Assembly: GCA_002269645.1 (NCBI GenBank)
Contig: NIVC01002221.1
Coordinates: forward strand, 1 to 64,000
DNA from: Macrostomum lignano
Taxonomy: Eukaryota
DNA length: 64,000 bases
Reading direction: 5' to 3'
In this document: piece by piece, positions 15,471-36,043 of the stretch
Numbering within the stretch: the stretch's first letter is position 1
Layout: every line of letters begins with the position of its first letter
The notes under the pieces: model-generated
Database searches by the model: none
The model's input: only the letters and a program-made list of their open reading frames with translations
What the model was told of the DNA's origin: nothing
Translations under genes and position numbers: made by a program

Positions 15471-16826
15471 CAGGGGAATGCCTGTTATCTTTCTGAAGGC
15501 TTTATTTTGTTGTCATTTTGTTAATTTTGGAAAAAAAGAGATTTATAGCGAACGTCTTTGTCCGTGACAATTAATTTTACTAGAATAAAGTGATTTATAA
15601 AACTGAAGAAGGAATTGGTTCTTATGAAAATGTGCTTTTGTAATCTACTTGTATGAATAATCTTTGCTCCTTGCTTATTGGGGAGCGCACTAGATTGCTA
15701 GTTGTATCGAAATCTAGCTGGTTAACTGAATTGTTTTCGAGTCCTTGCCGGTAGGGTGCCTGATGGCTGTTGGGTAGGCAGTGCGACTGGGCGCGGATGA
15801 TGTGGCCTGCCAGCTGAAGTCGTCGACGGTGTAACCGGACGTCTAGACAGATGGATCAGGCCGGCGCGGCGATACGGCGATGAAATTTAATCTTCGTAGT
15901 TTGCAGAGACTTTATGTGCAGATCAGTTTTAGCTAGCTGAAATTCTAGCTAAATGCGAAGCTTTACATAGCAAATTTTTATTGTGAGCTGGAAGCATGAT
16001 ATAGATGAAAATTGACATAACAATGTAATCAATACTACCTCTGTGTGCTTTCTGCATGGAAATGTTGACGTTTTGGATTGTGAAACCGCGATGGACGAAA
16101 ATTCCCTTGCCCGTCTTTTTGCTCCGGGCTTGTGTGCCATAGAATGAATCGTATTATATTACTTAAAGTAGACGCGCTATTGCCCGGTCTTCAAGCTTTT
16201 GATCACGCTCACGAGCTGACGAGTTCGCTGGAACCGCATCCAGGCCAAATCATCCACGTTAAGAATTGTACTGCCTACAGCCGCGATGAGGGAGGTGCTG
16301 CTGCTGACGTTACAGGTGCTCTACCGGCTACCGCTAAGCACTGCACAATGCGTTTACTGCCGACTGGCTGACGCCGGCTGCCCAATGCGGTAGGTGGCGT
16401 AGCCTTCTATTCGCACTCAAGCTTTATGCTCACCATGTGATGACGTTGGTCTTTATTTATGATCTGTTGAAAGCGTAATCTTTGTTTTGCTTTGCGATAG
16501 AAAATAACAAACACGTAGTTTCAGTTACATAAATTTGATAGAGGAAATAGCTTTATAGAAACTTTAACCCAGGCCAAGTATTAATTTTTTGTTGTGTTAA
16601 TTTTAAACTTAACAGTAGAACTACCAAGAGGGGGGAAAAATTTCCCCCCCCCCCTGACAATTTTTTTTGCTGCGCCGGAACGGAGCAACGCAGGCACACG
16701 AAATTCAAGAACACGGGCTAACTTTTTGTTGCGCACCTTCTCAAACAAGAATCAAGTCGCCAGCCCTTCGGACCGTCGAGATATTCGACGATTCTGCCAG
16801 AAGGTCGGATTTTTCCCATAAGCGCT

Positions 16827-17131
16827 AGTAGTATAGAAAAAGACGCTTCTAGACCCAGAGCACTTTTTAATGGCCGTTTTAAGGGTCTAGAGGGGGGACA
16901 CGGGGGGTAAATAAAAAAACACATCTAAACACCATTAATACATCTAATCACCCATAATCACCCCTAACAATAAAAATCACTTCCCAACACTTCCAAACAC
17001 TCCCTAACACCCCCCTCGCGTCCCCCCTCTTAAGACCTTACAAACGGCCATTAAAATAAGGTCTGATCTAGAAGCGTCTTTTTCTATACTACTACTCTAT
17101 AACCCCTTGCCCGCGCCGCAGGCGCGAAGGG
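16827..17131 (+). repeat. Left terminal inverted repeat, containing an internal fold-back
   Basis: Matches the reverse complement of 35665-36043, with divergence in the middle. Arms 16827-16908 and 17009-17096 are themselves inverted copies. Confidence 0.9.
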
Positions 17132-17150
17132 TCTTTTTCTGTTACTAAAA

Positions 17151-17465
17151 ATGACCCGAGTTTACACCTTTTCTGTTAGTGATACTTTTGAGACTGTTGC
17201 TAAAAATGCAGAGATAATAAAACAACATATTTTGAATGGAATAATTGATGAAGTTTATTTAAAATATGACGACAAGCACGACCTAAAACTTTATCCATTA
17301 GAGCTAGATGAGATGTATGATTTAGAACAAGAGGGTGAGTTAATATTTCAACTTGGAGATTATTTAAATTCGGATGATTGGGAGGTTAGATCAACAGATT
17401 CCGAATCAACAAATAGTTCATATGAAACCAGTGATTCAGAGAATGAAAGTGAAATTTTTATGTGA
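17151..17465 (+). CDS. Polinton hypothetical protein, 104 aa, acidic C-terminus
   Basis: ORF with AAAATG start right inside the left TIR; no recognisable domain. Confidence 0.6.
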   Translation: MTRVYTFSVSDTFETVAKNAEIIKQHILNGIIDEVYLKYDDKHDLKLYPLELDEMYDLEQEGELIFQLGDYLNSDDWEVRSTDSESTNSSYETSDSENESEIFM

Positions 17466-17538
17466 AAAAAATATTAAAAAAATGAACTATTATTCTATAA
17501 CAGAAACGACATTTATTGTGAAAAATATATATAAAAAA

Positions 17539-17706
17539 ATGAAGGTAAACTATTCCTACATCGGAAATGTGCCGATTAATGAACTTAATGAAAATTTAAG
17601 TTTGATAACAGTTGAACAAATGTCAATAATAATATTAGTAACAATTATAGTAATAATATTGTTTTTGTTTGTTATAAAAAATTTACTACCATGTTGTCTC
17701 AAGTAA
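17539..17706 (+). CDS. Small single-pass membrane protein (55 aa) ending in a dicysteine motif
   Basis: AAAAAAATG start at 17539; hydrophobic stretch IIILVTIIVIILFLFVI followed by KNLLPCCLK. Confidence 0.45.
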   Translation: MKVNYSYIGNVPINELNENLSLITVEQMSIIILVTIIVIILFLFVIKNLLPCCLK

Positions 17707-17716
17707 TTGTTCGAAC

Positions 17717-19319
17717 TTAGTTCGCTGATATTAGTTGGTTCTCATAAAACGAACCCAATATTTCTTCACCGTCCTTATCAGCAATTATATAGGTTGTAGG
17801 ATTGGTATTTAAAACTTTACTGATAGTAAATTTCTCACTTATCTTCCAATATCCTTTTCTTCCTTTTTCAAACTTATCTTTCCATTTATAGATATAAACA
17901 GAATCACCAACCTTAAAAGATTTCTTTTTATTTTTTTCAAATTTTCCAAAAGTAACTTTAACGTTTTCAGGATTGTTATAAGCTTGTTGAGGAGTCATCT
18001 TTATCGCCGAATGATATGAATTGTTATAATCTTTCACTACGTCTGGTAATATTTTTACCCATTTTTGGTTACCATTAAGACTAAACTGAAACCATAATTT
18101 CTTACCTAAAGTTCTATTAAATCTTTCTATTAATGCGTTTTTACTCTCTCCATAAATAGAATAAATTTTATTAATATACTCCCCATTCGCGTCTTTTTTT
18201 CTTTCTTGTCCTTTTTCAAAATGATATAATTTATACATATGAGGATTGTAAAATTCTTTTCCTTCGTCAACACACAAACGTTCGCTTTTTTCTCCAAGAC
18301 TTCTAAAAGCAGCAGCAACCTCCTCTCCCTTTTTGGATTTTAAAGGAACAGCCCACGCGTATCGAGTAAAACCATCTAATATGGTTAAGATATATTTATA
18401 TCCCAGATCTTTCGGCATCGACATTAAATCAGCATACCAAATTTCATTCTTTTTGAAGTTCATGATTTTTCTATAAAATTTAGGTTTTCGATATTCTTTA
18501 TGAAGAATCTTTGCCTCATCAGAACTTAACCCACTGCCACTTAATAGTAAACACTCAACACAATTATTTCCATGTTGATTATAATTAATTCCCAAACCAA
18601 ATTTAACTTTAGATTGTAGAATTTTTTTAACCATCCACCTAGTTAATCTTTGCCCTACCGATAATCCCTGCAAGTTATCTAATCCTTGAATCATTTTTTG
18701 ATCGGCTTCATGTTTTAATCTTAATGCTTCCTCGGGTGAGTTCTTATCAGCATCTCTGTATGCTAAGTCATGATAGTATGCTAACCAATCAATACCGTTA
18801 ATGGGAATTGAATCGGCTTTTGGAGTATTATCAGGATTTAATCGGAGATCGAGTCGAGTCAACCCGGCCTTTATACCTTTGCTTTCACAAAGGAGTAGAC
18901 TGTGTCTTAAGCTATCATAAGGATTGACTAAGTCCTTCAAGCCCACCAGCGTACAGTCGTTGCATCTCAACCATACTCAAGTCATATGAGGTTAGGTTTT
19001 CGATTCACTCTTGCCCATATATTTATCTTCAAGCTTGTTACCGTTGGGAAGAGGAGTTACCTCTGTTCCTTTGTAATCTTTCGAAAACAAAGTGGTACTT
19101 GAAGCTTTAGGGGATTGAGTGAGCGGCTGGTGTTGCCACTAATAGTGACTAGCAGTAGCTTTGCATCTACCACTCGGGCACAGCTCGAGCTCCACCCGCG
19201 AAGTTGTAAGATGGGATGTGTAATTCATTTGTATACCTTCCAGTAGTAAAGATTGGTGGTAAGCTTGTTAATCCTTTTTGAACATCTAACAATCCTCCTT
19301 CAAACACTATTTGGCTCAT
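17717..19319 (-). CDS. Parvovirus-type phospholipase A2 domain fused to a retroviral-like (rve) DDE integrase; exons 19319-19194 and 18859-17717 joined by removal of a group I intron (422 aa spliced)
   Basis: Exon 1: MSQIVFEGGLLD...ELHIPSYNFAG. Exon 2: TRLDLRLNPD...PINGIDWLAYYHDLAYRDAD...ADQKM (PLA2 HD motif), then the integrase triad WYADL / LCVDEGKEFYN / IERFNRTL and the C-terminal FKVGDSVYI...GSFYENQL region. The two exons are in frame. Confidence 0.9.
18860..19193 (-). ncRNA. Group I self-splicing intron, IC1-like, 334 nt, no internal ORF
   Basis: Minus-strand pairings: P1 CGGGU/GCCCG with a U-G wobble at the 5' splice site; P2 AGUGGUAG/CUACUGCU; P3 CACCAGC (19132-19126)/GCUGGUG (18950-18944); P4 UCACUC/GAGUGA; P5abc with AGUACC...GGUAACAAGC and a GAAA L5b loop; P6 AUC/GAU; P6a AACC/GGUU with CCUAA..UAUGG; P7 GACUGU (18958-18953)/ACAGUC (18903-18898); P9 CCUUUGU-GAAA-GCAAAGG; terminal G at 18860. 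Confidence 0.93.
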
Positions 19320-19917
19320 TTTTAATAGCCTTAAAAATACATGAAAGCACCAATTGTTTTGCAAATTCTTCTATGGTTGGTTGTTTATCATTTTTTGAAA
19401 TATTATCTACAGCAACTAAGTATCTTTTATTTCTCCAATTTTCAGACTTTTTAATTTGTTCTTCATCGCGATAATCAAAAGATGAAGCAGGAATAAAATG
19501 GTCAACATGCAAAACACCAATATAATCTTTTGGCACATAATAATGTTTTGTGAAATTTAACCAATCAGTAAAGAATTCAATTGAGCAACCAAGGTAATCA
19601 ACAGTATGATTATTTTTTCGAGCATTATTAGATTTTAGAAGAGAATATATTCTATTTCGTGTGTTTAAAATAAGTTTGTAATTTTCATCAGTTAATCTTC
19701 TTTCATTTTGATATTTTCTGCGCCTTTCTATATTATTTTTATCATATTCTTTTTTCCATTGAAGCTTATATTCACGATTTTTCTCATACCATTCTTTATC
19801 ATACTTTCTCTCACAAGGTTTGCAAATACTATAATATCTATTTTGATCTCTACGAAATCTAAAATAATCCAAAATTTTCTCTTCTTTACATTTATTACAA
19901 ATTTTTGTTTCATCCAT
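19300..19917 (-). CDS. Free-standing HNH-family endonuclease with N-terminal Cys4 zinc finger
   Basis: CNKC...CKPC at the N-terminus; YLGCS...LHVDHFIP...NWRN..YL...DNISKNDK matches the HNH (H-N-N) pattern. Its stop overlaps the start of the PLA2-integrase gene. Confidence 0.8.
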   Translation of the reverse strand: MDETKICNKCKEEKILDYFRFRRDQNRYYSICKPCERKYDKEWYEKNREYKLQWKKEYDKNNIERRRKYQNERRLTDENYKLILNTRNRIYSLLKSNNARKNNHTVDYLGCSIEFFTDWLNFTKHYYVPKDYIGVLHVDHFIPASSFDYRDEEQIKKSENWRNKRYLVAVDNISKNDKQPTIEEFAKQLVLSCIFKAIKNEPNSV

Positions 19918-19945
19918 TTTATAAAAAAATAAATTTAACAATTAA

Positions 19946-20624
19946 TTAAACACCAGTATGTCCAGCAGCTTTCGCAGCAGCTAAAATAAGTTTTCGTGGT
20001 GTTTTAAATCCATCACCAACAGCTGGTTTGTTATTTATAGAATTAACAATCCATTTATACAAGCTGGTATTTTTAACAGCTCCTCCTAAATCATCATAAA
20101 AAATTCTAGCACTTACTAAATCATTCTTAGTATAAAAATCAGGGTTAAACTTAACCCTAGGGTTAGTAATAATTCTATATGCTCCGCCCAATTCTCTATA
20201 TAGTTCATTTCGATCTTTATCAACGTTACCAATTCGGTAATTATTATTACCTAAATCTGTCACAGCAATACTAGCTGGTACTCTTGGAAATTGTTTAACT
20301 TCTTCACCCCTTTCTGCAGCCCTAATCTCTGCACGTCTAATCTCTGCAACTCTCAATTGAGCTTGATCAACATCATAAGTAGGCGGCTCATCTAAAAGTT
20401 CATCCTCTTTTGGCTCCGTATTTTTAGCAATTTTTGTTATCTTTATCTGTTTTTTCTAGTTCACTAATTTTCCCAGTAATAGGATTAACAAAAGGAGCAG
20501 CAAATCTTTCACCCGCTAATTGTATTCCTAACTTTCTTTTTTGTAAATTTCTAACAAAATCAGAATATCTTTGCTTCTCTTTATAAATCGCTAACTCTCC
20601 ATCAACGTCCATAAATTGACTCAT
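19946..20624 (-). CDS. Polinton hypothetical protein (one gene broken by a frameshift near 20420)
   Basis: ORFs 20424-20624 and 19946-20356 are adjacent on the same strand, and the intervening sequence continues as coding-like acidic/proline text. No domain recognised. Confidence 0.55.
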
Positions 20625-20658
20625 TTTTTAACATAAAAAACTTTTTTAACTTAAAAAA

Positions 20659-22128
20659 ATGGCTGAAACAAAAACTATGTGGAGTGATAAATTTCATTTC
20701 AAAAAGCACCGACAGTATATTAATGAGGTCAGAGCAAGAGATTTAAATTATACCCTACCAACAAGTGATAATTCAAATAACTTTACTACTGGAACGGTAA
20801 CTTTTGACATCGGCGCAACCAACACTATATTGGATATGAAAAATGCGTTTTTCCGCGTTAGATGGTTGTATACTAGAAATGATGGAACTGCTCTTGCAGC
20901 CGGAGATATCGCAGATCGATCCGGAATAATAATAGAAAATGATTGGTTTTATAAATGTTTTTCCCAAGCTCAACTAACTGTTAATGGTGCTGAGGTTGAG
21001 ACATCATCAAACCCCGCAGAGATTAATGGAGTTTTGAAACATTTAAATTATACTTATTTATCAAAACAAGTTGGTGATAATGTTGGGTGGATGCCGGATA
21101 AAGGTAACGGTCAAGCAGTAGTTTTCCCTAATGTACAAAACGCAGCCGGTGCAGATACTGCAGCGCTAATTGTTTACCTTAATACAAACATAGTTCCAGT
21201 TGTAACCACTATGACTAATACAAAAGATATTAATACTGGTTTTATAGATCGTCAGAATAAATTCCCAGTCGCGGTTTTAACCACAGCAACAGCATATGAG
21301 CAGGACTTTTCAATCTTCCCGCTATTTGGGTTCTTCTCACCAAATCGGGTATGGAAAGGATTAAAATTTGGGATACAGTTGCAAATATCTGGTGGATATC
21401 AGCCTAGGATACTTTATGGAACCTCAATTTCAACCGATATAGCAGTTCGTATAGATTCAATTCAATTAGTCGTACCAACTATTGAGGTAACAGCCCCACT
21501 TTTAAAACACATCGATAATCAGTTAACGCATGATCAGGAAATATTTTATTTGAATCGTCGACATTTTATGCGAACCATTAATAATAACCAGGATTCATTC
21601 CAGTGGCAAATACTGACATCAAAACGTCGGGTGAGATATATTTTTGTTTGGTTTAAGATAACAAATAGAAGGAGTAAAAGAGCAAATGGGGATTTATATT
21701 GGCTTCAATCCGGTGCCATAGCAGAACAAGCAGCCACCGCAACAGACAATGCGGCTGCAGCTATTAACGAGTTTAATGTTCAGAATATCCGCCTGCAGGT
21801 TGATGATCAATATTATCCGTTAAAGATCCTCTAATCTAAATATAGCAAATAATAATGTTAATGATTTTAAAAATATTATCAAGATTATGCTAAAAATGAA
21901 GCGTATGCCGTCCCTCAGTACACACCCACAGAGTTTCTAAACATTCATCCAGTGGTTGTTTATGATCTAACGGCACAGAAAGAAAACGTAGCCAATATTG
22001 GACTTAATTATATGTTAGAGATTAATAAAACCGGTAATCAGGCACTTGACGCCCACGTATTGTTTCTAGAGGAATATATGTCAATTGCTAAAGCTGATGG
22101 CACGATTGTTCGGGACGCGCCACTTTAG
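20659..22128 (+). CDS. Major capsid protein (double jelly-roll, Polinton PY/hexon-like); frameshifts near 21820-21870
   Basis: ORF 20659-21834 has TVTFDI...LDMKNAFF, FSQAQLTVNGAEVE, FPLFGF, WQI...VRYIFVWFK and NIRLQVDDQYYP. It continues in a shifted frame as YYQDY...FLNIHPVVVYDLT...AHVLFLEE to TAG at 22128. Confidence 0.85.
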
Positions 22129-22212
22129 TGTCGCAGTGCAAAGCACGTCGCACCATTGTAAAATGAGTGCAGGTCTCCGACCGTCGCGCCTATTTAAATT
22201 ATTTCTTTAAAA

Positions 22213-23012
22213 ATGGTAAAGGCAAAACACAATAAATATTTCCAAATGATCCTTTTCTTTGTTTAGTAATCGGAGGATCAGGTAAAGGAAAAACACACTT
22301 TGTTTACGATTTATTAACAACAGATGGAATGTTAGACTATAATAATTTAATAATTTATACTAATAAACCTAGAATAAAATATTATGAATTTCTTAAACAT
22401 GGATTAAAAAACAAATTAAAAAAAGATGTCTTGTTTAGAATGTTAAGAGCATATGAGCAATATGAGGATGATGACGAACCGCGATTTAATCTAGCAGACA
22501 TTGAGGATTTATGTAAAACAATGGCACAACAGCCAGAAAACATCACCGATCGCCCCGAAGGGTCGCGGACTTCGTCCGATCGAGCCCCAACTGTTAGAGT
22601 ATCAACCCGATTAGCCTATGATCAAATTCCAAAACATGATAAAACACTAATTATTTTTGATGATTGTATTAATGACGGTGATCAAGAATTGCAAAAGGAA
22701 ATTTTTGTTAGTGGTAGAGGAGATGGAATTGGAGCTTTTTATCTTACTCAATCCTTTAGAGAATTAGAATCGATTATAAAAAAGAATGCTAGCTGTTGTG
22801 TAATGTTTGATTTAGATAATTATGATTTACAAAATATACACGCTAGATTTAATCCCGGATTGGATGCAAAACCATTTAAAAGTATGTGTAAAAAAATTTG
22901 GGATGATAGCCAATACAAACATATTTATATCAATCCGAGGTTAGAAAGGAAACATAGAATTTTAACAAATTTGATAAAAGAAGATAATGAGGAAGAAGAG
23001 GATCGTGCATAG
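22213..23012 (+). CDS. A32/FtsK-like DNA packaging ATPase; 1-nt frameshift near 22240
   Basis: MVKAKHNKYF, then PNDPFLCLVIGGSGKGKT (Walker A at 22272, in frame with ORF 22329-23012), LIIFDDC (Walker B), SGR (arginine finger) and FYLTQS. Confidence 0.92.
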
Positions 23013-23064
23013 CACGCGTACCTTCGGAACGCGGACTTCGTCCGATTAATTTCCCACTATAAAA

Positions 23065-23849
23065 ATGACTACAAATTTAAATACTATAAAACAATTGGTA
23101 GATCGAACTAATTCAAAATTTAGTACAACATTACAGTTTATAATGACAACCAGCGAGCAACGGATTCAATTGCGCGATCCATTACAACTTGATCAAAGCC
23201 TAAGTTATCAAATAGGTTTAATACTATTTTCGGTTTTCAACATGCCTCAATTAATTAATGCAACAAATAATCAATTTAGATATTCTAAAGATTCCGGAGC
23301 CAATTGGACAACATTTAGCGTTAACCCAGGAGCGTATAGCTATACTGATTTGAATGCTTATATAGAAGGAGAATTAACATCTAACGGCGATTGGGTAGCA
23401 GGCGCATTGTTATAGGTGTTGATTTACCGTCTGGCAGATTCACACTATCACTAGGATCCGGATATCAGGTTGATTTCACAATTGCAAATTCACTCAGAAT
23501 CATACTTGGATTTAATTCCCGAATAGTTACCACATCAAGCACCGGTGATACAGTTGGAAATATAGAGGGTGGAGTAAATACAATTAATATAACAACCGAC
23601 ATTTCAAACGGTGGTTATATAACAGACGATAACGGAGTTTTGGTTCAACGTGGAATTATTTATTCAATCCCATTTCTTGCTGTTCCAATTGGAGAGAAAA
23701 TGATTGTATCACCTCAAACCCCAATATATTACCCATTAAATCAATATAATGTTCAATCAATTTATATTAGGATTGTAGATGAAAGCGATAGATTAATAAG
23801 TTTTGGTGGGCAGTCAATAACAGTGATTTTACGTATAAAACAGGTTTAG
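23065..23849 (+). CDS. Minor capsid protein (penton, Polinton PX); frameshift near 23405
   Basis: ORFs 23065-23415 and 23391-23849 give DPLQLD...YQIGL, NATNNQFRY, PGAYSYTDLN, SLRIILGF, IIYSIP...PIYYPL...IYIRIVDE..RLISFGG..ITVILRIK. Confidence 0.85.
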
Positions 23850-23859
23850 TACTGTAAAA

Positions 23860-24069
23860 ATGGGTAATCGAACAACATGTTCGCGTGCAAAGCACGATAA
23901 TAATAATAATTTAATAAAAAAACAATCAGAAAAAGTTAAAAAAGCTGAAGATAATTACGAACTAGAACTAGCAAAATTAAGGCAGTTACAAGCTGATAAA
24001 ATAAGAAAGGAATTGTTAAAACCCAAACCAACGAAACTAACTAAAACCAAGAGTTTTTCAGGAACATAA
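23860..24069 (+). CDS. Small basic coiled-coil protein (69 aa)
   Basis: AAAAATG start, Lys-rich, packed between the penton and protease genes. Confidence 0.55.
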   Translation: MGNRTTCSRAKHDNNNNLIKKQSEKVKKAEDNYELELAKLRQLQADKIRKELLKPKPTKLTKTKSFSGT

Positions 24070-24070
24070 A

Positions 24071-24514
24071 ATGACCATGACGTGGGATGATTTTAAACAA
24101 CGATATGGAACAGACACAACAAGCAATATCGAATTAACAAATTGGGCGAGGCAGTTAAAAATAAAACCATTTAGATGTGTTATGCGAGATGAGATCAAAG
24201 ACTTACCACAATATGGATCTTACATTGTTAATATTGAAACAACAAAAGAAAATGGTGTTCATTGGTCAGCAGTTTATTCAAAACCAAAACTTGTTTATTT
24301 TTTTGATTCATACGCGCTTCCTCCGTTACAGGAAATAAAAGACAAATTTAATCATACTAAAAATCGTTTATGTGGAGATCATCACGAACAGTTTCAAACC
24401 TTTGATAAAAGTTATTGCGGACAAGCAGCGTTATATTTTTTATATCGACTTTCGAATGAAGCTCGTGTAAACCACAAAGTATTTAAGACTATCATGCAAA
24501 GCATGCGAACCTAA
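24071..24514 (+). CDS. Adenain-like cysteine maturation protease
   Basis: Catalytic motifs in order: GVHW (His), FFDSY (Asp), QFQ (oxyanion Gln), YCGQ (Cys). Confidence 0.92.
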   Translation: MTMTWDDFKQRYGTDTTSNIELTNWARQLKIKPFRCVMRDEIKDLPQYGSYIVNIETTKENGVHWSAVYSKPKLVYFFDSYALPPLQEIKDKFNHTKNRLCGDHHEQFQTFDKSYCGQAALYFLYRLSNEARVNHKVFKTIMQSMRT

Positions 24515-24551
24515 GGTTCGATTTTAGACTCTATAAAATAGACAGTAAAAA

Positions 24552-26419
24552 ATGATATTTTCTGGAACACCCTCATGGAACGGAACAACAAGTACTGGTG
24601 GTGGTACTCTGGTGGAATAAGTGTTACCTTCGGAGATAATCGATATATTAATGAAGATGAAGGTTATAAAAAAAGTGAAGTTGATACTAAACTAAATTTG
24701 AAACGGAATGTTGCAGATTCCTATACCAAAACTGAAATCGATACTTCATTAAATCTTAAAAGAGATATTAGCGATTCATATACAAAATCAGAGGTTGACA
24801 CTGGGTTAAATTTAAAAAGAGATATAACTGATTCTTATTCTCGAACTGATTCTGATTCGCGTTATGTTCAAGCCACCGCAACCGGAACTTTAGATATGGA
24901 TAACAATCGAATTATAAATGTTGCAATTACAACGAATAACTCGGTAGTTGATAAGAACTATGTCGATAATCAGGTTGGTAGTCGTAACGGCAATATCAAT
25001 ATGAATAATTTTAAATTAACAAATTTATTATTTGGAACAGAGGCCACAGACTCGGTCAATTTAGGGCAGGTCAACGCTCGAGCTAATGTAACCGACGCCG
25101 ATATTTTTGCCACGCCGCTTACATCAAATACTTCAAATCCAGATGTTGTTCTTACAGCATCCGAAAATACCAACGATGCTTTTCGAGTTGGAGATGGAAG
25201 CCTTGCGACACAATGGTCACCAAATACCGGAACCACAACCAATATGGAAATTCAATTTGAATTTTTAGGTTATAATCGAAGAATAAATGAATTAAGAATT
25301 ACAGGCAGCGCAACTATTGATATTCCATCGGGATGGTCGGTTCGTGCAAAAAATGTTGCTACCGATGCATGGACGGTATTACGAACGTCGGGATCACCAA
25401 TTCAAGCAACTTCATTTGCGTTAACTAATTTAACGGTTAATTTTTGGAAATATTATAGCGTTTTATTCCCAACTGGTGGCACCGCTACACAACCTATCGA
25501 GGTTCGTCTAATACAATTATTTGAACACCGAGTTGAAATTCAAGATCTTAATTGGCCAAATGAAATACTATCTGCTACCCCGCGAGCGTACGTAGATCAG
25601 GTAGCAACTCCAACTTCAAATGGTAGAATGTCTGCCGGTGATAAAAATAAATTGGATAATATTCCCGCGATTGATGCCGCATTATTCGAGCCAGTAATTT
25701 GTAATTGGACTGGATATCAAAATCCAACAACCGCTGGAGATATATATCCAGTTGGTTCTTTAATTGGCGACGCTTCTTATATCGATTATCAAAATGGAGC
25801 TAGAATTACTCGTGAAACTGGTGGAGTAAGTGGGGCATTACAATTCAATTTCACACATTTTCAAAATATATCTGCGTCTTTCTATTTCCGAGTCGCTAAT
25901 TCTACAGGAGATGGTGCAGATGCGGTTTGGTTTTATGCATATTGTCACGAACGCCCAACAAGTGAAGGTGGGACTGGATTAACAACCGACGCCGGATTGA
26001 TAGTTTTTGCAAGTGAGTGGCATGATAAATTTGGCGTTGTATGGAGTAATAAAAAATCAGACGGATCAAGCCGCGCGGATGTTAATACTGACGCAGATCA
26101 AACGGTAGATTATGCAAATATTGATAACGGCGATTGGCATTTATTTGAAATTAATATTTTAAATCAAAGGGTTTGGTACATTACAGTCATACAATGTTGC
26201 TGGTGATTCTTTACCCTCATTGGACAGAACGTTTTCACATATGATAGTGGAACTTGGGGAACTTTAGATAAATCTGGAACCCTTATGGGTTTTGGTGCTC
26301 GAACTGGAGGATCGGATGCTGCACATTTTATTCGTGGCGCAGCCGTTTGTGGTAGCACATCGTTTGGTTATGTTTTTCCTTCTACCGCTTATTTAGAAAA
26401 ACCACCCGTACAAATCTAA
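24552..26419 (+). CDS. Fibre / receptor-binding protein; frameshifts near both ends
   Basis: Three LNLKR(N/D)..DSY.K.E.DT repeats, DMDNNRIINV and NMNNFKLTNL..DSVNLGQV fibre motifs, a discoidin-like ASEN...AF..GDG..ATQW segment, and a lectin-like C-terminus (FYFRV...GADAVWFY; shifted frame GFGARTGG..H) ending at TAA 26419. Confidence 0.7.
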
Positions 26420-26434
26420 ATATTTATATATAAA

Positions 26435-27333
26435 ATGGCTTTTAGTAGAACTCCATCGATGCGGCAAAATAATGTTATTATTCCTATTCCTAAACAAGAA
26501 TCAAATATAAAAACATTCAAATCTCATACCAAATTTTTATTTAGTACTGTAAATGTTCAGGATAACAAGAAGCTTCAAGAATTAATTAAGTTATTAAAAA
26601 ATCATATTATACTTCAAGAGTTTTGGAAAATAGGATTTAAATGGGAGAAAAAAGAAAGAATCACTCCAATACAATACCTATTGAGCTCGGGACAAATACC
26701 CAAAGAGCGCGGGGAATTCATTTTGGTGCTATTAAAAATAGACGAAATGTCGGTGTCTGAAGCAGATAAAAGGGAACGTGACATTTTAACCAACGTAAGG
26801 TCACATGTTAGTAATGTTGATCGAATAAATTATGATTATGATTTATATACTAAAAAAGTAAGAAGAATTTCAAATCATATCAGAAATATGGACTTTTTCA
26901 ATATTGGATTTGGAAGCTTATCATGTTATGTGTAATCGTTTTAGGTATTTTACAATCTATTCCAACTCTTAATTTATCTCAATTATTTTTAGGTATTTCA
27001 ATTGGCTCAATATCAGGTTTTGAATTGATCAGGAACTTATCAATACTTTTAGCAATTAAATTATATCTTAAAAAAAGAAAGGAAAAATATAAATCTTTAA
27101 GAGATGTTGCCAAGCAATATAAAAATCAATTATATTTATATGTGCAAAAAATATTGGATGACGGAGAGATAACGATTCATGAATTATCAACCGCGGTTGA
27201 GTTATATGAAAAATATTTAAAAGATAGAAATAGAATTTTAGATGTTGAAACTTTTACCGATATGGAATTAAAAGAATTGTTTGGACAAACCCAAAGCTCC
27301 ACCGATAGAAACATTAGGTATTTACGAACCTGA
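26435..27333 (+). CDS. Polinton membrane-associated protein(s): ORFs 26435-26935 and 26923-27333, possibly one frameshifted gene
   Basis: Hydrophobic helices (VIVLGILQSI...LFLGISIGSISGF...LSILLAIKLY) followed by KY...A...KILDDGEIT..E....E.YEKY, a pattern typical of a conserved Polinton/adintovirus membrane protein family. Family assignment is from memory. Confidence 0.55.
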
Positions 27334-27362
27334 AACTATTGCTACTGGCACAAAGCCCGCGG

Positions 27363-27875
27363 TCAGGAAGTGCTGTAGAACTTAATGTTGTTTAATTTAT
27401 TTAATGCATATGTTATATATTCTTCCCAAAGTGGTAACTCTCTTCTGATCCTAGGTTTAAATTTTTTATCAATACATAAAAATTCCAATGACTTTTTCAG
27501 TAACATTTCGTTAGGTATGTTACCTATCCTTATAAACTTTGTATTCTCTCGAATAAGAAAATTGAAATAATATCCAACTAAAATTAAAATCCTTTCGGAG
27601 TCTTTCGAACTTAATCCCTTTCCTTTATTTAAATGGAAAAAGTTATTATATAAATAAACATTATTTCCGGGAATTAAAATTGGATCAGAAATGTCTCTTG
27701 TAAGATTTCTTAAAATTGTGTTTTTAAAATAGTAATATGAGTTTTCAATCTTTTTTGTTTTTTCAAATTGATATATTTTAGAACATGAATAACACATATG
27801 ATATATATCTCCGTTTGCTGTTTGCCCTCTGTGCATAGTCACATTACATTTATTACAAACATAAATGTCTTTCAT
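27363..27875 (-). CDS. Hypothetical protein with N-terminal zinc ribbon (CNKC...CYSC)
   Basis: 170-aa ORF with AAAAAATG start, convergent with the preceding gene. Confidence 0.6.
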   Translation of the reverse strand: MKDIYVCNKCNVTMHRGQTANGDIYHMCYSCSKIYQFEKTKKIENSYYYFKNTILRNLTRDISDPILIPGNNVYLYNNFFHLNKGKGLSSKDSERILILVGYYFNFLIRENTKFIRIGNIPNEMLLKKSLEFLCIDKKFKPRIRRELPLWEEYITYALNKLNNIKFYSTS

Positions 27876-27901
27876 TTTTTTGTTATTTTTTTAGATTAAA
27901 A

Positions 27902-28230
27902 ATGGAGAGCTGGTTCAAAACCGATTCTAATGTGATTAATTATCTCACACCCAATATGTTGGAGAATAAAGAATATAATATTGTATGTTTGAGACAGGTT
28001 AAATTTATTGGCTTCAATCAATATTTTTACAATTAGATGGGCAAAAAATTTTATGTCTAAGCGGAGATGATGTTAAAAATTTTCCTGTTTTAGTTATTAA
28101 TAAACCTAAAGCGTTTGTTATGAAATACAGCAACGAGGGTGGATTGCAATTTAAACTAAAACAAAAAAATAAAAAGAGTGACAGGACTGTAAAATTGGCT
28201 TCGGTTTGGGAGGATGACGACGAAGACTAA
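27902..28230 (+). CDS. Small hypothetical protein with acidic tail (frameshifted)
   Basis: Starts MESWFKTDSNVINYL at an AAAATG and ends ...SVWEDDDED-stop; the frame is broken in the middle. Confidence 0.45.
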
Positions 28231-28245
28231 ATTTTTTATAAGAAA

Positions 28246-28581
28246 ATGGATACGATAAAAATCCTTATCACTAAAGAGCGTGAACTTAATGATATTAATA
28301 AAAAAATAAATATAATTATATCTCAGAAATATCATGAGTATGGGGACGATATGTTTCCCATCCGATATGAGATAGATAAAAGAAAACGTTTTTTAAGACA
28401 AGATATTGTTTATGCTGAAATAGTAATTGAAATTGAAATAGATAGATTGGTTAGAAAAATAAAAAAACTTAGGAAAAAAATAAAGGATTGTTTAAGTTAC
28501 CCTGACGACTGCGAGGAAAATTGGCCTTCAATATTATATGAAATCGAAATGGATTTATGCTTAAACAATTACATGCTTTAG
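28246..28581 (+). CDS. Hypothetical coiled-coil protein, 111 aa
   Basis: ORF with AAAATG start; no domain recognised. Confidence 0.55.
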   Translation: MDTIKILITKERELNDINKKINIIISQKYHEYGDDMFPIRYEIDKRKRFLRQDIVYAEIVIEIEIDRLVRKIKKLRKKIKDCLSYPDDCEENWPSILYEIEMDLCLNNYML

Positions 28582-28609
28582 TTTTTTTCCGCCCGAAGGG
28601 TCGCGGATT

Positions 28610-31600
28610 TTATCCGATAAGTAATTTTTCTGTTAATCTCTTCCAGTTATTCAAGACTTTTTCCTTATTTAATTTTTTAAGTTCTTTTGGAAATGTTGAA
28701 TAATAATTATCTATATCTTTTTCATATTCTAGAAATGTATTATATTCACAATCACATTCGGATTCACAATCACAATCGTAATAATAATTATTTATTGCCG
28801 CTTTGTATTCATTATATTTACTTATTATATCTTCTTTTTGTTTTTTATCTTTTATCATATTTTTTATCTCTTCTTTTAAACCATATGGATATGTTTTAAT
28901 TTTATCATCTAAATATCTTTTATCATCAAATGGACTTAATGTTTTTTTATCTGTCTCGATGACAAACATCTGATGCTTATCTGAATTTAATCGATATTGT
29001 GGAGCATGATAATTTTCAATTGTATTAAGGTAATCTAAAAGTACGTTTTTATAATCATCAAATGTTATCTTTTTACTGCTGCCTTGATACCCCTTTTATT
29101 TTTTTTACCTCTCCCTCCTGTCCTAAAACTTTAAATGCATAGCATTTTGATCTTATTGCTATAAACTCGGTTATGATTTTGCTATTTAATTCATCTTTCA
29201 TTTTAAGTACAACTTTTTATTTTGATTCGATTTTAAGGATGGTTATCCGGATAGTCGATGTGTCCAATGTATCCTTAATTTTTTCCATATCTTTATAGAC
29301 TTCTGGTGTTTCAACCTTAAATACCAAACTGTCGGTGTCTGCATATATTGGATAGTTATCTGGCCATGTTTTATTTATAACATCATAATAATATTCATAC
29401 ATTACCAGCTTTGCATAATCTAAAACAACCATTCCAATAAATATTGGTTTAAGAAATTTTGTTGTTTTATTTCTCATATGAATACCCATAAAGTTATCAT
29501 CAAATTTTATAAAATCTTTAAAGTTAGGTTTTGAGAAATATTTCTTTGCTTTATCAATATCCTTTTCTAAATGGAATTGGGTTCTATCTCTAATATTTTC
29601 AACCGTTTTTCCATAAAAAGCATTATTCATTAATTTCCAATAATCTTTCTCAAAATTTGTTTTTGACATCTGTCTCTGATTTGAATTAAAGTCAATATAT
29701 TTAGCTAACCAATCTTCCTCAATAAACGATATTGTTCGATGTACTTTAGACACTTTTAATCCCTGCTTTTCATAAAATTGTAGAAGCTTATAATGCACTA
29801 CATAGTTTTTCTTATCATGTAAATTTAATATTAATTTTTTTGTTGCTAGATGTTTTGCATTATCTACTTTAAGATAATCTTTTTGTGTTTGTGATAAATC
29901 ATCTTCATTAACTGAACAATGCTCTGGAGCTAAAGGATATTTATATGTTTTTGCTTTTGCTTCCCGAGTATATTGCAAATCCACTTCTACGATACAGCCC
30001 CTTCCTTCGGGAATATTTTTGTAATAATCGGGGTCATCTTCCCATTGGAAATCAGCTATTGGTAATTTTTGTTTCATACAACCACCGTATAAATTGTTTG
30101 CATCTAGATATAATACATATGATGATTTTTCTTTTTTATTATAATTTGGTAGATATTTATTATTTACTTTAGTATATCTATCTCCTAGTACCCCGAGAAT
30201 CCGCCGCGAATTCCTCTCTCAATCATTAACAACATATCATGATCAGTTAGTAAATCAATCTCAACATCTGTGTATTTCAAACCGCAAGCCCATGTTAATC
30301 CGGTGCACTGAAACAATATGCGGGATCAATTTTAAAATTCTCATATGTATGATTCCTAAAGTTTTCAAATGCATCAGCTAATAGGAGAACATCTGCTTTA
30401 AGATATAGATTATGATAATCTTTAAATGTTTTACAATTAAAATATTTCCATACTTTTTGAGCGTGTTCATAATCCGATTCACTTATATTTGTTTGTGATA
30501 ATGTTGAATAAAACTTTTCTATGGGGGTAATTCGGTATGAAAAAATACGTCTTCAGATGTTACATATTCATATGGATAGATGCCCTTACGAGTTAATAGC
30601 ATTAGTTCTTCCTCGGATAGTTTTTCCTTTTTGAAACGATTCAATAGTATTGGAAAGTTTTTCTTTACTATTTCTAAATCCCATGGTTTTGGAACTAATG
30701 ATGAAACAACATTTGCTAAAGATGTTGATAAGAATCTCAAGGAATCTAGAAAAACTAGATGGGAGTATTTCTTACCATATGTTATTGATATGTAATTTTC
30801 TGATGTTTTAGGTAATATATTTATTTCATATTCATCCTTTCCTAAATGAAGCAATTCTCGAACTAGGAAATGAAAATCATATCCGGAACCATTATGAAAA
30901 AATACTGGTATTTCCTTACATCCTTTTCCTTCTTTTGCGTTACATGATCTACATGCTGCCCCTCGATAAATTCCTGTTAGATGACAATGTTCTCGTATCT
31001 TATTTTTCTTACTTAAATATCTTTTGCACATAAACAATTTGTTGCATTTTTATAATTGTCTCTATCCTTATCTGTCATAAATATTTTTTGATAATTTATC
31101 ATATTGATTTTGAATATATTCAAATACATTTACTAATGATTCTGCCATGTGCTTAGCTGCATCTTACCGTGGTAAGTAATCATCCTTGATTTAAATATAT
31201 GATCGCTACGGAGTGTACATATATACAATAACTATTAGGAAACTGTTGTGCTAATTTTTTTGTGCATTCACCATCAGATACTGTCTGTGATTCTTTTAAG
31301 GGAACATTTGTTGCTTCAAAATCAGCATATATTACTATTGGTTTTTTAATTGCCATATAATGTTGTTGGAACATTAGGGTTGCATCTTCAGATGCTGGCA
31401 TTACAGCATTAGTAAATTTGTGATCTAAACAAAATCGTTGATGATTTTTAAGAGCTGTTTCATCCTTTTTAAATGTGAAACAATTTCTACATAGTGGATA
31501 TCTATTTCTATTTTCTCTTAAAAAGAACTAATGTCCTTTATGTATATATAATGTGTTTCATTTTCACGCTGCATGTACAAAAGGTCGATTTGATCTGGTG

Positions 31601-32498
31601 CTGTTATATCTGTTGCTGGCTTAACAAGATAACACCTTTTCTTATACCATTCTGGATTGGTTGAAATTTCTTCTAGATCTTTTGGTTCTTCAATTGTAAA
31701 CACATTAATATTTAAACCATTCATTTTTTCAATCTTATATATATCATCTATTGCTACTGGGTATGATATGTTTTTCATTATTATTTCATCTCATATTGTT
31801 ATAATTATATATTTTATTAGTGTGTGATTCTACTTGATTGTGATATTTATGAATTAATAAACACCATAATAAACATTTATTATCTTTATTGTTGGATTTA
31901 TAATCATTGGTGATTTAAATTTGAGCTTCATATGTGATCGTCCTTTAAGAATTTCTATGGGTGCAATCTTTACTATTGCTGAATTACAGGATACAAATAT
32001 AAACCCGGATCCGTTTTCTGTCATCTTATCTATCCATTCATCAAACTCAGCTTCTATTTGATTAAATTGATTATTGTAATTTCCCATTGATAGTAGTGTT
32101 TTATATGATTCTTGTGAAAAGTTATTTATTACTTCAATTTCTGAATTTGCATTAAGAATATTTGGTTTTTTAAATTCTGTTTCAACTTCTATTTTATACT
32201 TAATTGGCTGTCGTTTGTTATTTGGCCTTATAGTATAATTGTTTAATATGGTCTTTAATTTATCTTTCATTTGTTTAAAATATTCTTTATAATTTGTATT
32301 TATATCTATATCTATATATTACTTCAGCTCCATTTTGTCCTTGTGGTTGGGGTTATCAATATCATTTAATTGTCTTTCTAAACGTATCTCATTTTCTGCC
32401 CTAACTCTAGCTTCTATATTAGCTCTTTCTAATTCCAATTGAGCTATTAATTGCGCTCTAAGTTCAGGGTTGTCGATTTGAGCTAAAATTGCTTCCAT
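28610..32498 (-). CDS. polB: Protein-primed family B DNA polymerase (pPolB), split into several ORFs by frameshifts
   Basis: ExoI IYADFEA; REHCHLTGIYRGAACRSCN zinc/endonuclease VII-like insert; ExoII FHNGSGYDFHF; FLDSLRFL; RKGIYPYEY; ExoIII YHNLYLKADVLLLAD; motif A YLDANNLYG; motif B KLMNNAFYGKT; motif C YADTDSL; C-terminal LSPFDDKRY. Confidence 0.95.
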
Positions 32499-32582
32499 TT
32501 TATAGAATAAAATTTATATAATGTTTGAATTATTGATTTTTTAATTTTGTGTTTTTGGTGTCCAGACCCTCCCCCCAGGAGC

Positions 32583-33541
32583 CTATTCGAGATCTGCTTT
32601 TGGTAATAGCAATCCGTTTCCCATAACGTTTGAATTTAAGAAAATTCCTGAACCTGCTTTTGGTCGCATTTCGAGATATAATCCGCTTCCATCATGTTTT
32701 TCAATGATGTTAAAATCTTTTCCTAACTTATTAAAAATTTTCTGAACAGCTGGTCTAAAATTGGATCCAATATTGTCAAAAAATCCTTTAGCTTTCTCAC
32801 CCGTTTTTTCTAAAGTTTGGCCAAATTCGTGTAGTTTATCTGCGACAACTCCACTTCCTTGGGTCGTTCCTTTTAAAATTAAACCTTTTCCAGCTGCTAA
32901 TTTAGCTTCTGCATTTCTTTTTTGCTCTGCTGTTGCTGAACTACTATTAATGGTATCTATAAGTTTTTGTTTGAATTGTGCGTCCTGTGTTATTTGCTGT
33001 CTTTGAAATTCGGCCTCTCTTTTGGCTTTTTCATCCGCGGCTTTTTTGTCATTTACTGCTTTTGCAATTCCAGCCGCTCCTCCAGCGACTCCTCCAGCTG
33101 CTCCAATTCCTGCAAAAATTATTGGGAGCAAAGTTGCGAGGGTAATATACCCCCTTCTTTTGCTTTTAATTCTCCTAACTGTTTTATGTTATCATGAATT
33201 CTTTTTCCTGCTAAACCAGCTGCTCCAGCTGCCCCAAGTCCTAAAAGAATTGGTAAAATGGGTAACAACCCGCCGTCCTTTTTAGTGTGAGTCTCCAATA
33301 AAAATTTTACATCGGAGTCTGTCAGCCTATAATTTCTACCATGATTCTTAAAGGATATTGGTCTTCCTTCTTGTGCATATTTCGCAGCAAGTTTAAATGT
33401 ATTGATGTCGTAGTCAAATTTTTTGCCTAAGCGATCCAATCTTTTTAACATTGCGTGACTATGTTTATTATCGTCTAGATTTAAAGTATCTACAATTTCT
33501 CCTATAAAATATAGCCGTTTTTCGTCATTAACTGAGTCCAT
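32583..33541 (-). CDS. Virion core protein precursor with adenovirus pX(mu)-like GG-LP hydrophobic motifs (one gene, 1-nt frameshift near 33140)
   Basis: KDGGLLPILPILLGLGAAG and KEGGILP..LLPIIFAGIGAAGGVAGGAAGIAKAV, plus repeated GKGL / GSGV / GSGL / GSGI / GNGL candidate protease sites. Confidence 0.7.
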
Positions 33542-33551
33542 TTTTATATTG

Positions 33552-33962
33552 TTAAAATTTCTTTAATCCTTTTCCGCCTTTAATTGTGGTTAACATTTTA
33601 TTAAAATCCTGAATATCTTTATTACTTATTGGTGTGCTTTTCGTGGGGGTTTCTGTTGGTTGTGCGGCTTGAGTTGTTTCCTGCGCTAGTTTCAAATCTT
33701 TTATTGCTTTTATTTGTGAGAGGGTGTCGTTAAATTCTCTCAATTTCTTTAGTTCTTCTACTGCCCTCGCTGCTTCGATTCCGCCCTTTACAGCGTTTGT
33801 TATAGAACCTGCTGCAGAGCCTGCTTGGCCTATAAGACCCATATTGTCTTTAACGAAATTCGCTGCTGTACCAACCACATCAAAAAGACCCTCACCTCGG
33901 TATTCAACTGGGTCTCCTACCTGCAATTCGTTCAGATTTTGCATATGTGTAACGTGTGTCAT
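33552..33962 (-). CDS. Putative virion protein with a GEGL-amphipathic helix N-terminus (pVI-like)
   Basis: RGEGLFDVVGTAANFVKDNMGLIG, then a coiled coil and a C-terminal KGGKGLKKF. Confidence 0.55.
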   Translation of the reverse strand: MTHVTHMQNLNELQVGDPVEYRGEGLFDVVGTAANFVKDNMGLIGQAGSAAGSITNAVKGGIEAARAVEELKKLREFNDTLSQIKAIKDLKLAQETTQAAQPTETPTKSTPISNKDIQDFNKMLTTIKGGKGLKKF

Positions 33963-34405
33963 TTTTTGTTCTATTTTTAGTAACAGAAAAATTAAGTTGC
34001 AGACACTAAAGAAAAGGGTAGTGTGCAAGCATCTCGAGCGGTTTTATTTTATAGCTCTTTTTTACTCTTTTTTGTATAGAAAATAAAGAAGACGCAAACA
34101 CAAAAGATTCTCTATCCAAAAATGAACCTATGGTTCGCGGGCTGTGCCCGATGGCACAAATGGCCTGCTCCGCTGGAGCACAATGGACGCTTTTTATTCG
34201 ATGAATGGCCATTTTTCTCTCTGTCCTCGGTGCATTGTGTCTATAACAGCACATGAATTTTTCTCATAGCTTAGAAAAAATCATGTATACACTAAAAGAG
34301 TTTGGTGCACACACACACATGATTTTTTCTAAGCTGTGAGAAAAATTCATGTATACACTAAAAAGATTGTCAGTTTAATAGTTATGGAAATAGCACGCAA
34401 ATTAT

Positions 34406-35293
34406 TTACTTCTTAACCCATTTTCCTCCTTCGAACATCTCTCGGACTTCGGCGGCGCTCTCAGCTTTGTCTTCCGCGTCAGGATCTTCGTTGAAAGCTA
34501 CAATATAAAATCAAGCTTTAAAAAATATGAACTTACTTACATTACCACAATAGTGAAGCAATCACTTACTGTCTTCATACCACTGGTGAACTTGCTTTTC
34601 TTCAGGACTGCCATCTTTCAAAACCAAAGCAACTGTCTCGTGTTGCATCTTGAGAAGTTCCTTAAACCTGGCATCGTTGTTTGCCTTCTTGCAAATCGCA
34701 GCACTATAATTAATTACTATGCCCATTGAATAGGTAGAAAAAATTAAACCCGGGTATTCAAGGCAGAGTTGATAGTATTTGTTATAATCCTCAACCTTCC
34801 GGCTGGTTATGTTGAATGAGTCGGCCAGCTCTCGCTCTGTCATTCGATACTTCGTGCTTAAATAGTAGATAAGTCTACCCTGCTCAAATTGCATCATTGC
34901 CTTAGCAATCGATAGAGCTTCAATAGATGACTTTATTTTCTTAAATCTTTCAATCAAATCATGTTTGGTCGTACCTTCAAGCTTGAGACCAACGTGGGAT
35001 AGGCCTTGTGTAATCGCTTCCACGCACACACTAACTCCTCTATCTTCGTTCTCCTCTAACTTCTGATAGATTGTCTCTAGCACATTCTCCACATAACCTT
35101 TCTCTTTCCTCTTTTGGGTGGTCGGCTTCTTTTCACTCACCCCATCCAACTTTTCTAAACTATCATGTAAGGCCTCCAATTCCTTCTCCGAGAAGTCTTT
35201 AAGTCGGCAACCAATTAATGACTTATCCTTCCTTGATAAATTCGTAGCAATCTCGACAATAGATGATATCCTTGCTTCTTTCGATGATGCCAT
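34406..35293 (-). CDS. Helix-turn-helix-like protein with a 72-nt spliceosomal intron (34569-34498)
   Basis: 243-aa ORF containing MTERELADSFNITSRKVEDY. Donor GTAAGT at 34569 and acceptor TTTTATATTGTAG at 34498 join in phase 1 to give ...ED-TFNEDPDAEDKAESAAEVREMFEGGKWVKK-stop (34406). Confidence 0.65.
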
Positions 35294-35664
35294 GATAATA
35301 CGTTTGTTAGTTCTTGTAAAAGACAGATATTAGGAGTTGTGCATAAATAAGAGACTATTTGCTGTGGCTAGTTTTTTAGATTTCATCATTCTTATACACA
35401 CAATTAAAGCTTGGGGTGGAGTGCTGAAAATAATAAAAGCGCTTTTCATGAGTAAGCAACTCACCTTCCTGTTGTAGCCAGTTTGAGTCTGAGGTTTGCG
35501 CTTCGGTAAATGATGAGTATAATAGAAACCCCGAATTCCCGCGTTAGTCATTATACTGTCTGCGACCCTTTGGGGTGATCATGCAAAGTTTTTCTTTTTG
35601 TGAGCTGCTTTAAGATAGTTAAACACTGTTCCTTTTCTATGACTCAGTTTGGGTCAGACTGTGC

Positions 35665-36043
35665 CCCTTCGCGCCTGCGGCGCGTGCGAGGGTTTATAGA
35701 GAATTTGAAGTGTTAGAAGTGTTGGGGTGTGTTGGAAGTGTTGGAAGTGTTGGAAGTGTTGGGTAGAGTAGTAGTAGGGAAAAAGACGCTTCTAGATCAG
35801 ACCTTTTTTAATGGTCGTTTATAAGGTTCCAGAGGGGGGACACGGGGGGTGTGATAAGATGAGTTGGGGATGGGTTATATTGATTTTTGGTATTAAGGGG
35901 TGTTGTGGGTGATTATGGGTGATTAGATGTGTTAAGGGTGTTTAGATGTGTTTTTTATTTACCCCCCGTGTCCCCCCTCTAGACCCTTAAAACGGCTGTT
36001 AAAAAAGTGCTCTGGGTCTGGAAGCGTCTTTTTCCTTACTACT
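35665..36043 (-). repeat. Right terminal inverted repeat, containing an internal fold-back and a (GAAGTGTTG)n insert
   Basis: Reverse complement of the left TIR. Arms 35767-35850 and 35961-36043 are inverted copies. The extra GAAGTGTTG run at ~35707-35762 is absent on the left. Confidence 0.9.

Follow-up and report, generated by a model that had tools for sequence, protein, structure and literature searches.

The subject of this analysis is a 64,000-nucleotide stretch of the Macrostomum lignano genome (positions 1 to 64,000 of the forward strand of contig NIVC01002221.1, assembly GCA_002269645.1; hereafter the window), which contains a Polinton/Maverick element whose PLA2-like gene is interrupted by a group I intron. 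A gene for a free-standing HNH nuclease stands just upstream of PLA2, in a position that we call the slot; in related copies of the element the slot can hold an unrelated gene of 167 amino acids, C2, with affinities to the Eco47II/Sau96I nuclease family. We propose, at a probability of roughly two in three, that C2 is a methylase-free GGNCC cutter and the intron's partner, that immunity is conferred by the purge of GGNCC sites from the element together with the intron, and that HNH is an alternative occupant of the slot. We lean slightly towards the fuller picture in which this arrangement amounts to a methylase-free restriction system with its immunity written into the genome, the intron hiding the last essential site and the enzyme serving as both homing endonuclease and weapon, with HNH as a rival and the whole path preserved in one genome. 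That path would lead from an intronless allele, through an intron without an open reading frame (ORF) accompanied by a free-standing nuclease, to an intron-encoded nuclease.

The content of the slot was compared across the source assembly (764 Mb), in which PLA2 exon 2 is present at least 150 times (150 scored among 432 candidates). Of 153 classified loci, 136 were retained; those set aside were two lacking PLA2, three with no exon 1 in range, one duplicate and 11 belonging to a distant subfamily. No slot was empty among the 136, HNH or a remnant of it occupying 99 and C2 37. Two types of intron, A (the window's type) and B, are found downstream: HNH is combined with type B in 79 loci, with type A in 17 and with no intron in 3, and C2 with type B in 30, with type A in 7 and with no intron in 0. 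After dereplication at 99% the corresponding numbers are 56, 7 and 2 for HNH and 17, 5 and 0 for C2. Slot content and intron type are independent (Fisher p 1.0). Ten further loci added six HNH genes with type B introns and four uninformative cases. The intron occurs without HNH in 37 of the 133 intron-bearing loci, and all three intronless alleles of the close subfamily carry HNH (in variants other than the window's, two of them full-length with catalytic residues); thus, neither HNH nor the intron requires the other. The sequence-only reading had paired the window's HNH with the intron, and had held that finding HNH irrespective of intron status would count against that pairing. This is largely what the combinations reveal. 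A pairing of endonuclease and ribozyme at this site is still supported, with the evidence favoring the Eco47II-family nuclease over HNH as the protein partner.

The slot is exchanged often and precisely between HNH and C2. Both flanks are at least 98% identical in 21 HNH/C2 pairs, which involve 9 C2 loci, and the borders of the swap coincide with the ORF ends in the four pairs inspected. On flank trees (short FastTree runs) the slot changes content 16-20 times, as against 26-30 times with shuffled labels. No fixed polymorphism of a protective kind separates HNH from C2 alleles in these flanks, the best exon 1 sites giving 10/22 vs 59/65 and 3/22 vs 42/65, and HNH-specific exon haplotypes were not found, one haplotype being common to two HNH variants and C2. 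A looser search pattern for intronless alleles returned 30 loci; 13 were discarded as tandem-repeat matches and the other 17 belong to more distant families and have an intronless PLA2 gene, with neither HNH nor C2 in the adjoining 1.5 kb. In two loci (L021, L065) a third, acidic ORF, "C3", sits in the slot ahead of an HNH remnant; it resembles the upstream gene of a divergent sub-lineage (L031, L032, L225).

In a distant, sister subfamily C2 is found within the intron itself. At locus L148 the intron at the same site contains an ORF 62-66% identical to C2, and in 20 of 20 further loci of this subfamily (the closest 20 of 108 genome matches) the ORF lies immediately downstream of the 5' splice site. 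The intron-borne form is thus present in 21/21 sister-subfamily loci, with exon 2 in range for 19 of the 21; no HNH was detected in this subfamily, where the intron is present. An independent metagenomic contig, L255, has the layout exon-intron-nuclease-exon-integrase at the same site; a search for viral-contig relatives of its exon, or by C2 alone, found none. The tails of several database homologs of C2 resemble a translated intron core, an indication that these homologs too are intron-encoded.

First searches with C2 gave no match in Pfam or among the sequences of solved structures. The intron-borne form scores above the Pfam cut-off for RE_Eco47II (PF09553; 26.9 vs 25.9), the domain is present in 4 of 12 database homologs of C2, and the residues of a PD-(D/E)xK site (D65, E76, K78) are conserved across homologs. 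Eco47II homologs have been linked to GGNCC, "without certainty" (PMC10305163), as has Sau96I (PMC6346686). To judge from its family, from the purge of sites described below and from the position of the intron inside the GGNCC motif, C2 would cut GGNCC. It resembles the Eco47II/Sau96I type II systems, giant-virus relatives included, in its PF09553 family, its D..E-x-K motif and its association with GGNCC. It differs from them in that no cognate methylase was detected, protection appearing to lie in site loss and the intron, and in that it can be encoded within an intron. An ORF with C5-methylase motifs lies within 2 kb of 30 out of 31 viral-contig relatives of C2, whereas six Polintons tested gave no methylase match. 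Giant-virus contigs (L256-L286) contain pairs of an Eco47II-like nuclease and a methylase, and several are strongly depleted in other palindromes, among them GANTC, ACNGT and TCNGA.

The element in the window has no GGNCC where 16.5 are expected (Poisson ~7e-8), as compared to 81 vs 90 in the host flanks. GGNCC is its most depleted word among all 4-mers, 5-mers and words of the form NN-N-NN, and no other short word was found to be purged in both subfamilies. Elements with C2 show the same loss (observed/expected 0/14.9, 0/6.9, 0/6.6, 0/9.3 and 0/8.2, with 0/15.9 and 0/4.9 in the sister subfamily), and three short fragments, with an expectation of about 2, have none. In intronless elements the PLA2 site is the sole GGNCC (1/13.4, 1/10.0) or one among few (2/15.8, 4/16.5); one such element has 0/8.5 beyond the PLA2 site. 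Near the slot, no GGNCC occurs in 78 kb of C2 loci, as compared to 14 in 212 kb of HNH loci, among which 3 are the intronless site. Loss of GGNCC removes Gly-Pro dipeptides as well: the ORFs of two elements have 0 vs 5.4 and 0 vs 8.5 expected, as compared to 9 vs 10 in another Polinton family. Stretches of that other family are not purged (10/7.2, 17/10.7).

The insertion in PLA2 is a group I intron, as judged from a conserved and covarying core, and is predicted to be self-splicing; the same core led us to reject a spliceosomal intron. Three intronless alleles (L031-L033) show the insertion point to be the junction of the Gly codon and the Pro codon in the PLA2 calcium loop, where the intron divides GGNCC into GGN and CC. 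Helix P1, with a U-G pair at the 5' splice site formed by the last base (U) of exon 1, has 5/5 pairs in 126 of 133 close introns and 4/5 in 6 (1 unparsed). P7 is 6/6 paired in 145 of 155 introns, in five sequence versions (9 unparsed, 1 with 5/6), and P4 is entirely paired in 143 of the 155 (11 unparsed). The window intron adopts a group I topology with a fold z of -3.57 and, as previously noted from the sequence, has no ORF of its own. With Rfam model RF00028, related introns at the same site (seven type B or intron-plus-ORF loci) score 61-89 bits against a cut-off of 50; the cut-off is not reached by type B loci L027 and L029, nor by type A. Rfam matches on the window itself were chance hairpin or miRNA matches and were discarded.

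Several features of these introns deserve mention in their own right. Two different ribozyme cores, A and B, occupy one site and have P2 and P5abc blocks in common (window vs L027-L030 and L255). The intron of L255 is B-like in P4 and A-like in its 3' half, which suggests recombination between ribozymes. The 3' junction of type A (window 18869-18850) is invariant in all type A loci and pairs extensively with the 5' guide region of the intron. In L151 an intron loop has grown into a 30-nt tandem array and the core has shortened; we had considered that this long intron might contain a nuclease, and dismissed the idea when its content proved to be the array. The intron of L013 is broken by ~830 bp of foreign DNA.

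Fold and catalytic residues identify the ORF in the window's slot as an HNH/beta-beta-alpha nuclease, predicted to nick or cleave DNA. Its sequence found no HNH match in Pfam and no match among solved structures, and matched PHROG 1035, "endonuclease VII" (E 1.7e-11). The AlphaFold model has a pLDDT of 94.7, with strands at residues 136-140 and 164-168 and a helix at 169-175. The model has 45 viral structure matches at E <=0.001, many labelled HNH, headed by mimivirus L246 (E 4e-12) and an intron-encoded endonuclease of Bodo saltans virus (E 2e-11); solved structures gave no significant match (best E 0.11, Cas9), and a wide structural search gave Z <=4.6. D139, H140 and N163 are invariant among 97 aligned homologs, and N172 is conserved in at least 90%; these catalytic residues are retained in 11 of 11 family variants aligned, down to ~55% identity. 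The concern that the enzyme might be catalytically dead is therefore not borne out. Of its copies, 71 of 99 are intact and 28 decayed (for C2, 11 of 37 are decayed). The geometry reported from the sequence also stands: the HNH ORF ends within PLA2, with an overlap of 20 nt when the stop codon is counted, and 106 nt separate the stop from the 5' splice site (after 19194). We sought a purged short target word for HNH and found none. Beside the best 80 of 170 viral-contig HNH relatives, none had PLA2, an integrase or the tested intron core words (0/80). The HNH variants of the slot, at 55-89% identity to the window's, are mosaics of exchangeable N-terminal, middle and C-terminal blocks, like domain-shuffling homing genes.

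From these elements one could envision the following sequence of events. Polintons lacking a methylase would escape self-cutting through the loss of every GGNCC. A single retained Gly-Pro, that of the PLA2 calcium loop, would be split in DNA by the group I intron and rejoined in RNA. An intronless relative would expose a single cut site, precisely at the insertion point, and because only one site is left in such a purged relative, an enzyme with a short site would behave like a homing endonuclease. If the break were repaired from a copy that has the intron, the intron would spread, along with C2 when this is adjacent or embedded, while competitors left unrepaired and non-purged DNA would be damaged. 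C2 occurs in two forms, free-standing beside an ORF-less intron (a collaborative arrangement) and inside the intron (a composite mobile intron). HNH copies like the one in the window would gain immunity from the intron and from the purged genome, and they probably spread by long-site nicking of their own. The arrangements of genes, the exchange of the slot, the purge, the missing methylase and the insertion point are observed; cleavage of GGNCC, splicing, homing and the direction of homing are steps that we infer.

A number of observations weigh against this interpretation. Free-standing C2 falls under the Pfam cut-off (E 0.001). C2 is accompanied by an intron in 37/37 loci, but with only 3 intronless loci (2 dereplicated) the association has a p of 0.56; moreover, all locus counts come from one assembly, are biased towards near relatives and may be inflated by redundant contigs (87 clusters at 99%). 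The purge extends to elements that lack C2 and hence is no proof that C2 caused it. One half-element of the other Polinton family is partly depleted (4 vs 8.8), and three spans contain many sites: C620 has 19/14.5 GGNCC, C1101 45/24.3 and C273 8/21.8. These sites lie mostly in GC-richer or other-family stretches that are presumed insertions. Splicing raises difficulties of its own. Candidate type A introns have the terminal G that is nearly universal in group I introns. Among 109 type B introns, 81 have A in its place, a rare state, with the G-C binding pair of P7 retained (e.g., L029, L034, L047). The coral mitochondrial intron ND5-717 likewise lacks a terminal G and is nonetheless spliced in vivo (PMC6545197), and most type B introns would have to splice without one too; unlike the PLA2 introns, ND5-717 is mitochondrial, very large and inserted at an unrelated site. 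At the type A junction no in-frame choice of splice sites restores Gly-Pro, and there is no base-for-base alignment with other alleles. No spliced junction was seen in contigs of 4 out of 24 sequencing runs, none of the runs being recorded as RNA; coverage is silent on expression. A single intron-free joint in these contigs was rejected as a sign of splicing: it has C, not U, before the junction and corresponds to the genomic intronless type of L033. Finally, C2 expressed in the nucleus would be expected to be toxic, the host DNA being full of GGNCC, and we found no mechanism that controls it; it follows that C2 must be either silent or harmful there.

Other explanations were weighed. One that is compatible with C2 as the intron's partner, and to which we grant a serious though minority chance, treats HNH as a MobE-like free-standing homing nickase that would nick either a gene in the flank or the C2 allele, take over the slot and co-convert the nearby intron. 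The slot that is never empty, the 21 pairs with near-identical flanks, the borders at ORF ends, the 16-20 slot changes, the 71 intact HNH copies and the precedent from T4 (PMC2790892) speak for it. However, ordinary recombination between copies would look alike, and the flanks hold no fixed protective polymorphism. The model of the sequence-only reading, that HNH cuts the intronless insertion site, that the intron protects it and that both spread together in the manner of F-CphI and psbA, seems improbable to us. The geometry, the intact catalytic residues and the intron-encoded endonuclease among the structural relatives speak for it, as does the window-type variant, which in 13 of 14 loci (4/5 dereplicated) accompanies a type A intron and is on no intronless allele. 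Diversity, too, is highest near the insertion site, at 0.242 and 0.168 per base as against 0.080 downstream, but this peak may stem from P1/P10 pairing or from relaxed constraint. Set against these points are the presence of HNH in all three intronless close alleles, where self-immunity would demand its absence; the independence of slot content and intron type, along with the exon haplotype common to two HNH variants and C2; and the lack of any intron-embedded HNH among the loci examined, the sister subfamily having the intron and no detected HNH.

It is also conceivable, though we are doubtful, that C2 serves mainly as a weapon, degrading co-infecting viruses or the chromatin of the host in a replicative phase; the intron would then be no more than its antidote, and homing a by-product. 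Whole-element purge suits an enzyme with a short site, the closest viral relatives of C2 are nucleases of restriction-modification systems, and interference competition by intron endonucleases has been proposed or shown elsewhere (PMC5871332, PMC11620839). Yet 99 of the 136 loci lack C2, which is thus dispensable, and its move into the intron is what a selfish homing gene would do; the scarcity of intronless alleles in the close subfamily (3/136) is what homing should leave behind. An outside enzyme, such as a restriction activity of a helper or competing giant virus, could have driven the purge, with C2 captured later and its target perhaps longer. The purge of elements without C2 fits this idea, as do giant-virus contigs in which C2 relatives accompany methylases, some of them poor in GGNCC (1/19.6, 4/20.3, 0/6.8). 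We nevertheless rate it low: no such helper is known for the host, other Polinton stretches of the same genome are unpurged, and no outside agent is required for C2 family, purge and insertion site to coincide. Least credible of all is that both slot genes are inert passengers and that drift and recombination between copies dispersed the intron. Many copies are decayed, it is true, but the catalytic residues have been kept in HNH variants and in C2 homologs, and such a scheme leaves the purge and the intron-encoded C2 unexplained.

With C2 as the intron's partner, the closest analogy is to collaborative homing as described for F-CphI and the psbA intron of cyanophage S-PM2 (PMC6083498, PMC3984707). 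The proposed next step in that process is entry of the free-standing nuclease into the intron to yield a composite intron (PMC3984707). The scheme proposed for C2 would fit the definition of collaborative homing (PMC6083498), and the nuclease-in-intron arrangement is found in the sister subfamily. Unlike F-CphI, C2 is a restriction-family PD-(D/E)xK enzyme with an apparently short site, immunity would also need purge of the whole element, and the setting is an animal nuclear Polinton rather than a phage. The window's HNH calls to mind MobE of phage T4, which mediates trans-homing of the nrdB intron (PMC2790892): it too is a free-standing HNH just upstream of an intron-containing gene and could carry the intron by co-conversion. 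It differs in belonging to a giant-virus group of HNH proteins with a Cys4 finger, in alternating with an unrelated nuclease and in that neither a nick site nor a protective polymorphism was identified among our alleles.

Polinton-like viruses of protists (PMC12220804) and a giant virus, Bodo saltans virus (PMC5871332), have been reported to contain group I introns. There, as here, the introns lie in protein genes with HNH genes nearby, and competition has been proposed; these reports differ in concerning protists, and their accessible text names no PLA2 insertion site, Eco47II-type nuclease or site purge. Collaborative homing has been raised as a possibility for entomopoxvirus elements (PMC11296320), and interference by an intron endonuclease has been shown in phages (PMC11620839). 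For nematode Polintons, the accessible account describes HNH domains inside PolB only. In the literature that we consulted, which included few subscription journals, we found no report of animal Polintons with group I introns, of Polintons purged of a site or of intron nucleases of the Eco47II type.

According to an earlier account (PMC3679873), group I introns of the nucleus are restricted to rRNA genes of microbial eukaryotes. Those described here belong to the nuclear genome of an animal and interrupt a protein gene, in well over 100 copies of a Polinton. Since the locus displays side by side the proposed stages in the birth of a mobile intron, the model can be tested with natural alleles. 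The locus suggests a route from restriction enzyme to homing endonuclease in which the target is purged instead of specificity being lengthened. It would further follow from the scheme that Polintons of animals undergo replication side by side, are in competition and perhaps cut the DNA of their host, a point of relevance to whether they are active viruses.

The 19.2-kb element of the window (Table 1) is assigned to the Polintons/Mavericks by its inverted repeats, its integrase and a weakly matched packaging ATPase. The inverted ends span 286 nt at 84% identity, and no matching 6-bp target duplication was found at them. Pfam matches are to the rve integrase (E 8e-7) and, weakly, the A32 ATPase (E 0.016); a PolB-like region is fragmented and without Pfam match, and no capsid proteins were confirmed. 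PLA2-like genes have been described in animal Polintons (PMC8502044). Exon 2 alone matches PF08398 only weakly (E 0.075).

Table 1. Coordinates of the features discussed, as positions in the window.
Feature	Position	Strand	Remarks
Polinton/Maverick element	16827..36043	.	19.2 kb, AT-rich; inverted ends, rve integrase, weak A32 ATPase match
PLA2 exon 2	17717..18868	-	Open frame running on into rve integrase
ORF-less group I intron, type A	18869..19193	-	3' end uncertain by a few bases
Helix P3 of type A intron	19132-19126/18950-18944
Helix P4 of type A intron	19122-19117/19010-19005
Helix P7 of type A intron	18960-18954/18902-18897		G-C binding pair
Helix P9 of type A intron	18893-18876		P1 also present
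PLA2-like gene, exon 1	19194..19319	-	Ends in Gly codon of Gly-Pro calcium-loop motif; ATG at 19319
Free-standing HNH nuclease gene	19300..19917 (ORF 19917-19300)	-	205 aa; N-terminal Cys4 finger, long helix, D-H..N..N site
Conserved gene, ~223 codons	19946..20624	-	Upstream flank of the nuclease slot; frameshifted in the window copy (L002 vs other loci)

In most copies, and likewise in L255, PLA2 exon 2 and the rve integrase share a single open frame, which suggests a PLA2-integrase fusion whose expression depends on splicing. Hairpin insertions of ~30 nt are polymorphic at many positions of the element, often with the frame kept (window 24506 and the slot ends), and are also found in the P5b/P6 regions of the introns in L034, L148 and L248; they are possibly a tiny mobile repeat. 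The terminal repeats are internally palindromic (window 16826-17099), and a long repeat pair capable of forming a hairpin lies near the right end of the element (window 34250-34363). Beyond the element, on the plus strand at window ~39700-57800, the host DNA, that of an animal to judge from a synapsin exon (Synapsin_C, E 1.5e-9), carries a synapsin gene with repeat-rich introns.

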